Below, one piece after another: positions 185 to 3,667 of a DNA stretch of 6,328 nt. Made by a program: the position numbers and the translations under genes. Location of the stretch: IMG/VR virus record IMGVR_UViG_2541047844_000011; one strand, given 5' to 3'. This DNA is from a virus (Duplodnaviria > Heunggongvirae > Uroviricota > Caudoviricetes). Numbering within the stretch: position 1 is the stretch's first letter; each line of letters starts with the position of its first letter. The notes beneath the pieces are model-generated. The model was not told the origin of the DNA, made no database searches, and worked only from the letters and a program-made list of their open reading frames with translations.

Positions 185-3100
185 ATGGGTAAAGGCAGCA
201 GTAAGGGGCATACTCCGCGCGAAGCGAAGGACAACCTGAAGTCCACGCAGCTGCTGAGTGTGATCGATGCCATCAGCGAAGGGCCGGTTGAAGGTCCGGT
301 GGATGGATTAAAAAGCGTGCTGCTGAACAGTACGCCGGTGCTGGACAGTGAGGGGAATACCAATATCTTCGGTGTCACGGTGGTGTTCCGGGCAGGTGAG
401 CAGGAGCAGACTCCGCCGGAGGGGTTTGAATCCTCCGGCTCCGAGACGGTGCTGGGTACGGAAGTGAAATATGACATGCCGATCACCCGCACCATCACGT
501 CGGCAAACATCGACCGTCTGCGCTTTACTTTCGGCGTGCAGGCACTGGTGGAAACTACCTCAAAGGGGGACAGGAATCCGTCGGAAGTCCGTCTGCTGGT
601 TCAGATACAGCGTAATGGTGGCTGGGTGACGGAAAAAGACATCACCATTAAAGGCAAAACCACCTCGCAGTATCTGGCCTCGGTGGTGGTGGATAACCTG
701 CCGCCGCGCCCGTTTAATATCCGGATGCGCAGGATGACGCCGGACAGCACCACAGACCAGCTGCAGAACAAAACGCTCTGGTCGTCATACACCGAAATCA
801 TCGATGTGAAACAGGGCTACCCGAACACGGCACTGGTCGGCGTGCAGGTGGACTCGGAACAGTTCGGCAGTCAGCAGGTGAGCCGTAATTATCATCTTCG
901 CGGGCGCATTCTGCAGGTGCCGTCGAACTATAACCCGCAGACGCGGCAATACAGCGGTATCTGGGACGGAACGTTAAAACCGGCATACAGCAACAACATG
1001 GCCTGGTGTCTGTGGGATATGCTGACCCATCCGCGCTACGGCATGGGAAAACGTCTTGGTGCGGCGGATGTGGATAAATGGGCGCTGTATGTCATCGGCC
1101 AGTACTGCGACCAGTCGGTGCCGGACGGCTTTGGCGGCACGGAGCCGCGCATTACCTGTAATGCGTACCTGACCACACAGCGCAAGGCGTGGGATGTGCT
1201 CAGTGATTTCTGCTCGGCGATGCGCTGTATGCCGGTATGGAACGGGCAGACGCTGACGTTCGTGCAGGACCGACCATCAGATAAGGTGTGGACCTATAAC
1301 CGCAGTAATGTGGTGATGCCGGATGATGGCGCGCCGTTCCGCTACAGCTTCAGCGCCCTGAAGGACCGCCATAATGCCGTTGAGGTGAACTGGATTGACC
1401 CGGATAACGGCTGGGAGACGGCGACAGAGCTCGTGGAGGATACGCAGGCCATTGCCCGTTACGGTCGTAATGTCACGAAGATGGATGCCTTTGGCTGTAC
1501 CAGTCGGGGGCAGGCACACCGCGCCGGGCTGTGGCTGATTAAAACGGAACTGCTGGAAACGCAGACCGTGGATTTCAGCGTCGGCGCAGAAGGGCTTCGC
1601 CATGTACCGGGCGATGTTATTGAAATCTGTGATGATGACTATGCCGGTATCAGCACCGGTGGTCGTGTGCTGGCGGTGAACAGCCAGACCCGGACGCTGA
1701 CGCTCGACCGTGAAATCACGCTGCCATCCTCCGGTACCACGCTGATAAGCCTGGTTGACGGAAGTGGCAATCCGGTCAGCGTGGAGGTTCAGTCCGTCAC
1801 CGACGGCGTGAAGGTAAAAGTGAGCCGTGTTCCTGACGGTGTTGCTGAATACAGCGTATGGGGGCTGAAGCTGCCGACGCTGCGCCAGCGCCTGTTCCGC
1901 TGTGTGAGTATCCGGGAGAACGATGACGGTACGTATGCCATCACCGCCGTGCAGCATGTACCGGAAAAAGAAGCCATCGTGGATAACGGGGCGCACTTTG
2001 ACGGCGACCAGAGCGGCACGGTGAATGGTGTCACGCCGCCAGCGGTGCAGCACCTGACCGCCGAAGTCACCACAGACAGCGGGGAATATCAGGTGCTGGC
2101 GCGATGGGACACGCCGAAGGTGGTGAAGGGCGTGAGCTTCCTGCTTCGCCTTACCGTGGCAGCGGACGACGGCAGTGAGCGGCTGGTCAGCATGGCCCGG
2201 ACGACGGAAACCACATACCGCTTCAGGCAACTGGCGCTGGGGAACTACAGGCTGACAGTCCGGGCGGTAAATGCGTGGGGGCAGCAGGGCGATCCGGCAT
2301 CGGTATCGTTCCGGATTGCCGCACCGGCAGCGCCGTCGCAGATTGAGCTGACACCGGGGTATTTTCAGATAACCGCCACGCCCCATCTTGCCGTTTATGA
2401 TCCGACGGTACAGTTTGAGTTCTGGTTCTCGGAAAAGCGGATTGCGGATATCAGGCAGGTTGAAACCACAGCCCGCTATCTTGGCACGGCGCTGTACTGG
2501 ATAGCTGCCAGTATCAATATCAAACCGGGCCATGATTATTATTTTTACATCCGCAGTGTGAACACCGTTGGCAAATCGGCATTTGTGGAGGCTGTTGGCC
2601 AGCCGAGTGATGATGCATCCGGCTATCTGGATTTTTTCAAAGGCGAGATAGGGAAAAGCCATCTGGCTCAGGAGCTGTGGACGCAGATTGATAACGGTCA
2701 GCTTGCGCCTGACCTGGCTGAAATCAGGACGTCCATTACGGATGTCAGCAATGAAATCACGCAGACCGTCAATAAGAAACTGGAAGACCAGAGTGCGGCA
2801 ATTCAGCAGATACAGAAGGTTCAGGTTGATACAAATAATAACCTGAACAGCATGTGGGCTGTGAAGCTGCAGCAGATGCAGGACGGACGCCTTTATATCG
2901 CGGGTATTGGTGCCGGTATTGAGAACACCCCTGACGGCATGCAGAGTCAGGTGCTGCTGGCGGCGGACAGGATTGCGATGATTAATCCTGCGAATGGCAA
3001 TACAAAGCCGATGTTTGTTGGGCAGGGCGATCAGATATTCATGAACGAAGTGTTCCTGAAATATCTGACGGCTCCCACCATTACCAGCGGTGGCAATCCC

Positions 3101-3667
3101 CCAACGTTTTCACTGACACCTGATGGTCGACTTTCTGCGAGAAATGCGGATATCAGCGGTAACGTGAATGCGAACTCCGGGACGCTCAATAATGTCACGA
3201 TTAACCAGAACTGTCGGATTCTGGGAAAACTGTCAGCTAACCAGATTGAAGGTGATATTGTCAAAACGGTGGGAAAAGCCTTTCCGAGAAATGGCAGTTA
3301 TGCCAGCGGTACAATAACGGTCACTGTGTACGATGACCAGGCTTTTGACCGTCAGATAGTCGTCCCCCCCGTTCTGTTTCGCGGTGGTAAGCATGAAAAC
3401 TTCAACAGCAACAACCAACAGTCATACTGGTATTCAACCTGTAAGCTGCAGGTGCTGAAGAACGGACAGGAAATCTTTCAGCAACCCGCGACGGATGTCA
3501 GCAGGGTATTTTCATCAGTCATTGATATGCCTGCCGGACACGGCCATGTCACCCTGACTTTCAATGTTTCTTCATATGGTGCAAATAACTGGACGCCAAC
3601 GACCAGTATCAGCGACCTTCTTGTTGTCGTGATGAAGAAATCAACAGCCGGCATCAGTATCAGTTGA
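185..3667 (+). CDS. J: Host specificity protein J (central tail fibre / tip attachment protein), 1160 aa
   Basis: Long ORF with ATG at 185 and GGAG at 173..176. The N-terminal ~810 aa ([34 protein letters not shown]... through ...[27 protein letters not shown]) is near-identical to lambda gpJ as I recall it. The C-terminal ~350 aa keeps recognisable J blocks ([59 protein letters not shown]) but is substantially diverged and about 28 aa longer than lambda J (1132 aa). Confidence 0.95.
2522..2615 (+). repeat. In-gene partner of the direct repeat found at window 1..94
   Basis: Base-by-base alignment gives 89/94 identity with window 1..94. Homology ends abruptly after J nt 2615 (window nt 94), at the codons for SDD|A. 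Confidence 0.85.

Follow-up and report, generated by a model that had tools for sequence, protein, structure and literature searches.

A phage 21-type J gene with two C-terminal cassettes, and a fragment of a second J, in a lambdoid I′-J-stf region

Introduction

Does strong divergence in the host-range protein of a lambdoid phage mean that the phage uses a new receptor, and does a truncated second copy of the same gene mark the place at which receptor-binding modules are exchanged? Both questions are raised by a 6,328-nucleotide stretch of DNA from the IMG/VR virus record IMGVR_UViG_2541047844_000011 (hereafter, the window), which is the I′-J-stf region of a lambdoid (phage 21/“Lambda_2E9”-like) prophage or phage. 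The gene in question, J, lies on the plus strand at positions 185–3667 and encodes a protein of 1160 residues; a fragment of another J gene, J′, occupies positions 1–94. A sequence-only reading of the window had proposed that J is almost lambda-identical up to the tripeptide S808-D809-D810 (SDD) and then passes into a single diverged module for what is likely a receptor other than LamB, that the SDD/A811 boundary is a dedicated joint for swapping such modules, and that J′, which ends at the same codon, is the footprint of a swap. The account that we consider highly probable is that J is a known phage 21-type gene whose C-terminal third comprises two cassettes, that LamB is its predicted receptor, and that J′ arose in a separate, illegitimate event.

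Results

Pairwise alignment with lambda J (NC_001416) bears out the divergence described in the earlier reading. Residues 1–810 of J are identical to lambda J at 787 of 810 positions (97%), and residues 811–1160 at 179 of 355 aligned columns (50%); the C-terminal 350 residues are thus far from near-identical to those of lambda J, and the extreme C terminus is also unlike the ...FASDVQVMVIKKQALGISVV of lambda. At the DNA level, identity to lambda is 96.1% over positions 185–2594 and 57.7% over 2595–3667. All six TipJ Pfam domains pass the curated cut-offs with E values of 1e-31 to 1e-43: FNIII-A_GpJ (residues 86–207), Phage-tail_3 (330–498), Ig_J (610–714), and Ig_J_second (716–818), followed in the C-terminal part by Phage_Tail_Tip (872–1000) and Ig_GpJ_C (1038–1160, E = 1.5e-37). 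Structures matched in the PDB are 9wca (A8 gpJ, the top match, E = 1e-149) and 8xcj/8iyk (lambda J, E = 1e-100), and the gene order, with the 3′ end of I at 95–124, J at 185–3667, and stf at 3726–5747, is that of a TipJ gene and is alike in the relatives. J belongs to the lambda TipJ family and is a trimeric tail-tip/central-fiber protein.

Judged by its sequence, J is the phage 21 allele in both of its variable C-terminal segments. The first of these, cassette 1 (residues 811–935, positions 2615–2989), is 97% identical to phage 21 and 38% identical to lambda, and the second, cassette 2 (residues 1015–1160 plus the stop codon, positions 3227–3667), which is the Ig-like receptor-binding domain (RBD), is 100% identical to phage 21, 45% identical to lambda, and 82% identical to the A8/Turner type. 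The J protein of phage 21 (CPT_21_21, GenBank OL657228; Feiss et al. 2022, PMC9119081) has the same 1160 residues and is encoded in the same I-J-stf order without lom. It is 98% identical to the J of the window over residues 1–810 and 98.6% identical (345/350) over residues 811–1160, with all 19 substitutions at or before residue 986, and it shares with the window both Ile1025 and a shaft allele 28 residues longer than that of lambda.

The same protein is common outside the window. J proteins 100% identical to it are encoded by Lambda_2E9, 1H12, and Lambda_ev110/ev245/ev066 (LR595860 and others, genus Jouyvirus) and by Escherichia coli prophages, and the exact protein is indexed in 1018 blocks of a public assembly collection. 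Positions 91–6328 of the window show 99.9% DNA identity to about 10 sequenced temperate coliphages (Lambda_2E9, 1H12, Lambda_ev110, and others), matches to the window at 99% or more are found in 95 E. coli genome records, and the match to phage 21 extends over 86% of the window, with a DNA identity of 95.6%. The J allele is already known: it has been sequenced and annotated, its receptor use has been characterized in phage 21, and many E. coli prophages carry it. The literature also describes how J C termini have diversified (e.g. bioRxiv 10.1101/2020.06.25.171868).

The C-terminal third of J is not one unit. We aligned 12 lambdoid J proteins, namely those of the window, lambda, phage 21, the second prophage of CFSAN061770, PhiR55_1, two Stx phages, ev243, Turner, 2G7b, mEp460, and 2B8. 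Mean pairwise identity is 0.85–0.97 up to residue ∼815, 0.27–0.72 over residues 818–935, 0.83–0.87 over residues 938–997, and 0.39–0.69 over residues 1018–1160. The conserved N-terminal part (residues 1–810, positions 185–2614), which comprises the hub domains and two FNIII/Ig domains, is thus followed by cassette 1, corresponding to the α-helical shaft and the top of the central straight fiber, by a conserved island (residues 936–1014, positions 2990–3226; ...PMFV..NADISG..NANSGTL) that corresponds to the lower fiber and is ∼80% identical to lambda over residues 940–1010, and by cassette 2. These assignments follow the lambda structures, in which the successive segments are the α-helical shaft with the top of the central straight fiber, the lower fiber, and the Ig-like RBD (PMC11101478), and the positions of the Pfam matches agree with them.

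Clustering of the segments from the 12 proteins recovers the shaft/RBD allele combinations AA, AC, AD, BB, BC, BD, and BE. The phage 21-type shaft is joined to the phage 21 RBD in the window and in phage 21 itself, to the GISIR-type RBD in the second CFSAN061770 prophage and ev243, and to the WYPTAS-type RBD in PhiR55_1; the lambda-type shaft is joined to the lambda RBD in lambda, to the GISIR type in mEp460 and 2B8, to the WYPTAS type in 2G7b, and to the A8 type in Turner. In ∼210 complete J C termini from IMG/VR, both shaft alleles pair with GISIR, WYPTAS, A8, and 21-type RBDs. The notion of one diverged module therefore holds insofar as the C-terminal third is diverged and exchangeable, but the exchange involves two independently assorting cassettes (residues ∼811–935 and ∼1015–1160) that flank a conserved island. 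Such cassettes would be shuffled by homologous recombination in the conserved DNA that flanks them, the substrates being the 2.4-kb N-terminal part, short patches of identity in codons 806–835, and the conserved island at codons ∼936–1014. Residues 1 to ∼810 vary very little among lambdoid phages, because a fit to conserved tail-tip partners is required.

The 28 residues by which the shaft of the window exceeds that of lambda are residues 836–856 and 860–866 (positions 2690–2782), and they fall in a stretch free of proline and glycine with heptad-like amphipathic periodicity. The alignment, this periodicity, and weak secondary-structure support (a helix at residues 841–876 in a single-sequence AlphaFold model of residues 804–1160) suggest that the shaft may be about four heptads longer than that of lambda. 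Twenty-eight residues equal four heptads, so that a trimeric helix bundle could be ∼4 nm longer with its register unchanged. The lambda shaft refolds upon receptor binding (PMC11101478), and the length of the shaft might therefore affect triggering. A third search for homologues returned only near-identical partial J proteins.

The receptor is best called from the RBD allele. The native receptor of phage 21 is LamB, as established by experiment, and coevolving phage 21 gained the use of OmpC and then of OmpF (Borin 2023); the first of these steps, the gain of OmpC, has been assigned to the substitution I1025T (PMC11336670). Residue 1025 of the J of the window is the ancestral isoleucine, and the RBD (residues 1015–1160) is identical throughout to that of the LamB-using phage 21, which contradicts the proposal of a receptor other than LamB. 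From this identity, the best-supported prediction is that J binds LamB as its primary receptor, and the use of OmpC and OmpF may be one or a few mutations away. By analogy with lambda, opening of the tip would be triggered by a rearrangement of the shaft after receptor binding.

We next examined the claim that the neighborhood of SDD is a recombination joint; it is there that the second Ig/FNIII domain gives way to the α-helical shaft. Mismatches to lambda thicken from position ∼2584 and include Q806/P807 in place of Arg/Ala ahead of SDD; downstream of SDD, an 18-nucleotide patch at 2627–2644 (LDFFKG) is perfectly conserved with respect to lambda, and deep divergence together with the 28-codon indel begins only at ∼2650–2680. 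A boundary lying exactly at SDD was thus correct to within a transition zone of ∼95 nucleotides, which holds the end of J′, but the divergence from lambda is gradual and not sharp at SDD/A811. We scanned IMG/VR for combinations of the flanking markers at codons 806–807 (QP or RA) and codon 812 (S or E) and then typed the shaft downstream. The parental haplotypes dominate, with at least ∼117 contigs of QP-S-21-type and at least ∼84 of RA-E-lambda-type among the matches listed. Exhaustive scans recovered 19 contigs with a crossover between codons 807 and 812 (9 RA-SDD-AS and 10 QP-SDD-AE), which by shaft type comprise 9 RA-S-21-type and ∼9 QP-E-lambda-type contigs. The RA-E-21-type haplotype, in which the crossover lies farther downstream by ∼10 codons, within the GYLDFFKG patch or past it, accounts for 27–34 of a sample of 120 RA-E contigs, and QP-S-lambda-type was seen in 2 contigs. 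All of these counts are indicative only, since IMG/VR is redundant in E. coli prophages.

Natural recombinant haplotypes are therefore present in codons 806–835, as at a mosaic boundary, and their crossovers are spread over the interval. Recombination near SDD does occur in nature, as the 19 contigs attest, but downstream crossovers are commoner, and the occurrence of crossovers both within the SDD patch and beyond it points to a crossover zone at a domain boundary rather than to a single joint. For the protein that results, it makes no difference if the crossover lies instead anywhere in the conserved 2.4 kb upstream.

The J′ fragment corresponds to codons ∼781–810 of a J gene plus one nucleotide. 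It is a direct repeat, in which positions 1–94 match positions 2522–2615 at 89 of 94 nucleotides (95%), far beyond chance, and its homology to J ends where the earlier reading had placed it, at nucleotide 94 (equivalent to 2615), the first base of codon A811, directly after the SDD codons at 2606–2614. J′ is in frame with position 1 of the window and runs off its left edge. All 94 nucleotides are found without a mismatch in the J gene of a second prophage type, one with a 21-type shaft and a GISIR RBD, located for example at 3.67 Mb in CFSAN061770 (L005). Matches to J′ at 99% or more occur in 88 complete E. coli genomes; some strains (CFSAN061770 and EC1) carry prophages of both the J′ type and the 2E9 type.

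What follows J′ is the tail of a different gene. Positions 95–124 are the 3′ end of the tail assembly gene I (its last nine codons, encoding GGQVVVIGR, and the stop codon) and are identical to the corresponding sequence in Lambda_2E9, lambda, phage 21, and others. Normal phages read ...GACGAAGGGGAT immediately followed by GGTGGTCAGG, and the window reads ...AGTGATGATG immediately followed by the same GGTGGTCAGG. The overlap between the two sides of the J′/I′ junction is 0 nucleotides, or else consists of a GATG microhomology (4 nucleotides) plus one inserted G. The frame of J′, which is out of frame with the I tail, stays open for 32 codons past the junction, to a TAA at 190–192. Homology on both sides and an in-frame hybrid, the marks of homologous module exchange, are absent at this junction.

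The junction was not found when positions 1–260 of the window were searched against 5,426 complete E. coli genomes and 50,697 phage records; exact 30- and 23-nucleotide junction patterns had no match in the GTDB representative genomes, IMG/VR, or the JGI metagenomes, and the 63-residue J′ read-through peptide had no full-length match in a set of 5.8 billion protein clusters. A recurrent break of J after GATGATG was sought in two IMG/VR scans, which gave 0 and 8 matches, all 8 being unrelated chance matches. Gene I is intact upstream of the exact J protein in all nine places listed in the public assembly index. The end of J′, which had been taken to mark a joint for module swapping, is in fact the point at which J′ is fused, out of frame and with next to no homology, to the 3′ terminus of I, and the fusion does not recur in these collections.

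Single-nucleotide polymorphisms (SNPs) at positions 178, 182, and 214, around the start of J, are the sole differences between window positions 95–6328 and most of the 2E9-family loci checked. The bases of the window at 178 and 182 are those of lambda (GAGCGTGAGGA), which hints at a small recombination patch adjoining the odd junction.

The remainder of the window was laid out from a six-frame listing of open reading frames (ORFs) and from comparison with annotated relatives; all of the following features are on the plus strand unless noted. The I-J spacer (125–184) contains a hairpin at 143–162 followed by a T-rich tail, the phage 21 counterpart of which bears a terminator annotation. Unlike lambda, the window has no lom between J and stf; a 58-nucleotide spacer (3668–3725) takes its place, as in phage 21. 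A terminator-like hairpin at 3686–3705 with a T-run to 3715 lies in this spacer, at the place where phage 21 has an annotated terminator, and in a promoter/terminator scan of the window this hairpin 3′ of J was the only signal to exceed the shuffled expectation. Several relatives (Lambda_4B5, L009, L010, and L013) carry IS4 or IS5 insertions in the J-stf spacer or in stf.

The side tail fiber (stf-like) gene (3726–5747; Pfam phage_tail_N at residues 1–131, phrog_1419) has counterparts annotated as side tail fiber in phage 21 and PhiR47_2. It is itself a mosaic, in which the N-terminal domain (PF08400) and an Ala/Glu/Lys-rich coil match phage 21, and positions 4724–5635 lack a megablast match to phage 21 and are identical in the 2E9 family. 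The AT skew reaches ∼0.5 over the part encoding the coil (4050–4500), and residues 442–483 give a weak CBM_4_9 match. Two small ORFs lie 3′ of stf. The first (5744–6022; 92 residues, phrog_1361), whose start overlaps the stf stop codon, is conserved, and the second (6035–6328; 97 residues, phrog_1443) is also conserved and is annotated in phage 21 as a membrane protein with two transmembrane segments. An antisense ORF of 461 residues on the minus strand (1277–2662) lies wholly within J and is most likely a by-product of J codon and GC bias, not a gene.

Discussion

The window contains an ordinary, known mosaic that the sequence-only reading recognized correctly, adding to it one wrong functional prediction, that of the receptor, and one over-interpreted coincidence, that of the J′ break. 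For J′ itself, we propose that a second type of resident prophage supplied the N-terminal part of its J gene, which would have been joined, without useful homology and out of frame, to the last 30 nucleotides of I. Because the junction appears in none of the collections searched and is not recurrent, it is a singleton illegitimate junction. Most likely, then, J′ ends at an illegitimate-recombination junction or possibly at an assembly chimera, and is not a module swap; the closeness of its break to the domain boundary we assume to be, most likely, a coincidence.

The first of the more specific explanations, that assembly or scaffolding was misled by multicopy J into a chimeric J′/I′ junction and that the left edge of the window is a contig end, is a real though minority possibility. 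Assembly artefacts evidently arise often at J. It occurs at a median of 3–4 places per E. coli genome, and many database J proteins are labeled “partial” and are cut at contig ends within the conserved part. Public records include J proteins that contain internal duplications which cannot be genuine, joined at scattered points (P0001–P0009 and P0013), as well as an IMG/VR scaffold that joins three J pieces through Ns (L077), a contig with a perfect 2539-nucleotide tandem repeat in J (L091), and a “Bacillus thuringiensis” record in which lambda J is repeated four times, probably lambda control DNA in that assembly. Within the window, the junction is unique, position 1 lies in the J′ frame, and the end of the window falls exactly at a stop codon, as expected of a contig running from an edge-truncated gene to the last called gene. 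However, the junction contains no Ns, its sides share at most 4 nucleotides (GATG), so that a k-mer graph would need junction-spanning reads to join them, and the private SNPs at 178, 182, and 214 suggest a real, slightly different genome, not a collage.

A real, weakly functional junction, produced by illegitimate crossover between co-replicating lambdoid genomes and giving the order ...I-J′(1–810)+32 residues/I′-J-stf..., with a hub-only J′ beside a full J, appears to us unlikely. Strains carrying both parental prophage types exist, J′ matches one parent fully and the rest of the window matches the other at 99.9%, and the J′ frame is open through the junction to the TAA at 190–192. Lambda packages genomes of 78–105% of 48.5 kb, and the addition of ∼2.5 kb to a genome of 46.7 kb stays within this limit. 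Yet J′ is visible over only 94 nucleotides, no second example was found in the collections searched, and a truncated J that lacks both fiber and RBD would probably spoil the tail tips, and selection against the phage would be expected. In its stronger form, this explanation holds that the junction is a genuine, very recent non-homologous recombination between two co-resident lambdoid prophages, a raw intermediate of mosaic formation in which a hub-only J′, cut at the boundary between FNIII-2 and the shaft, is expressed beside a full J of another lineage. We regard that form as quite doubtful; if true, tail tips might be assembled with hub-only J′ among their subunits and be modulated or poisoned by it. 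A J fragment found at the edge of a contig calls for confirmation at the level of reads.

The model of one post-SDD module for a non-LamB receptor, with a dedicated joint and J′ as its footprint, is largely refuted and by now very improbable: although divergence from lambda starts a few codons from SDD, SDD lies at the end of Ig_J_second, 19 IMG/VR contigs cross over between codons 807 and 812, and the close RBD relative A8 binds OmpC, the RBD is that of a LamB-using phage, the region consists of two independently assorting cassettes, crossovers are commoner downstream of SDD than inside it, J′ runs out of frame into the tail of I and brings no module, and no other J in IMG/VR breaks at the same base.

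Two further origins were rejected. A recent tandem duplication does not fit copies that differ at 5 of 94 positions, one of them identical to the J of another prophage; an engineered construct comparable to the A8 gpJ chimeras does not fit either, since the A8 fusion lies at lambda residue 964 and the window shows no cloning scar, and the match of the rest of the window to wild prophages also disfavors it.

Several observations weigh against our account of a phage 21-type J, LamB use, and an illegitimate J′. The use of LamB is predicted from identity to phage 21, five of the differences between the phage 21 and window J proteins fall within residues 811–986, and the closest solved structure, that of A8 gpJ, whose RBD is 82% identical, is that of an OmpC binder (PMC11338833). 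The AlphaFold model that contributes to the inferred shaft length is poor (predicted local distance difference test score, pLDDT, of 43). The chance, calculated a posteriori, that the J′ break would fall at the boundary is ∼0.6% for an interval of ±10 nucleotides and ∼2.7% for the 95-nucleotide transition zone, and the visible part of J′ is limited to 94 nucleotides at the left edge of the window.

Among the known systems close to the window are the 2E9-family phages and prophages. They have the same ORFs downstream of J, and after the two small ORFs comes the sitABCD manganese/iron transporter moron, on the opposite strand; they differ from the window in that gene I is complete ahead of J, whereas in the window J′ stands in the place of all of I except its last 30 nucleotides. 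Phage 21 differs from the window in the C-terminal half of stf, which is unmatched over 4724–5635, and the J′ fragment is present only in the window.

Lambda gpJ (P03749; PDB 8IYK and 8XCG–8XCK; Ge & Wang 2024, PMC11101478) shares the architecture of hub, FNIII-1/2, α-helical shaft, central straight fiber, and Ig-like RBD. Its shaft cassette is 38% identical to that of the window, which is 28 residues longer, and its RBD is 45% identical with three indels, so that the RBD of the window is not the lambda allele. The receptor of lambda is nevertheless LamB, as it is for phage 21 according to the phage 21 experiments. Four loops of the lambda RBD (residues ∼985–1132) contact LamB in PDB 8XCJ, and at 45% identity the RBD of the window would have to contact LamB through largely different loop residues.

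The A8 gpJ chimera (PDB 9WCA/9WCB; Brodel et al. 2024, PMC11338833) carries the short shaft of lambda, with a natural C-terminal part fused at lambda residue 964; it was selected as an OmpC binder and works in a lamB deletion strain. The A8/Turner-type RBD is identical to that of the window at 120 of 146 residues (82%), and the two have the C-terminal end in common; they belong to the same subfamily and are different alleles. That A8 gpJ binds OmpC at this level of identity indicates that small changes within the RBD family switch the receptor, and because 26 of 146 RBD residues differ, the receptor preference of A8 cannot be transferred to the J of the window. In annotation, the C-terminal third of J is best treated as two cassettes and the receptor called by RBD allele, not by distance from lambda. 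A host-range protein may diverge strikingly without any change of receptor: the RBD of phage 21 is 45% identical to that of lambda and both phages use LamB, whereas a relative 82% identical to the RBD of phage 21 uses OmpC.

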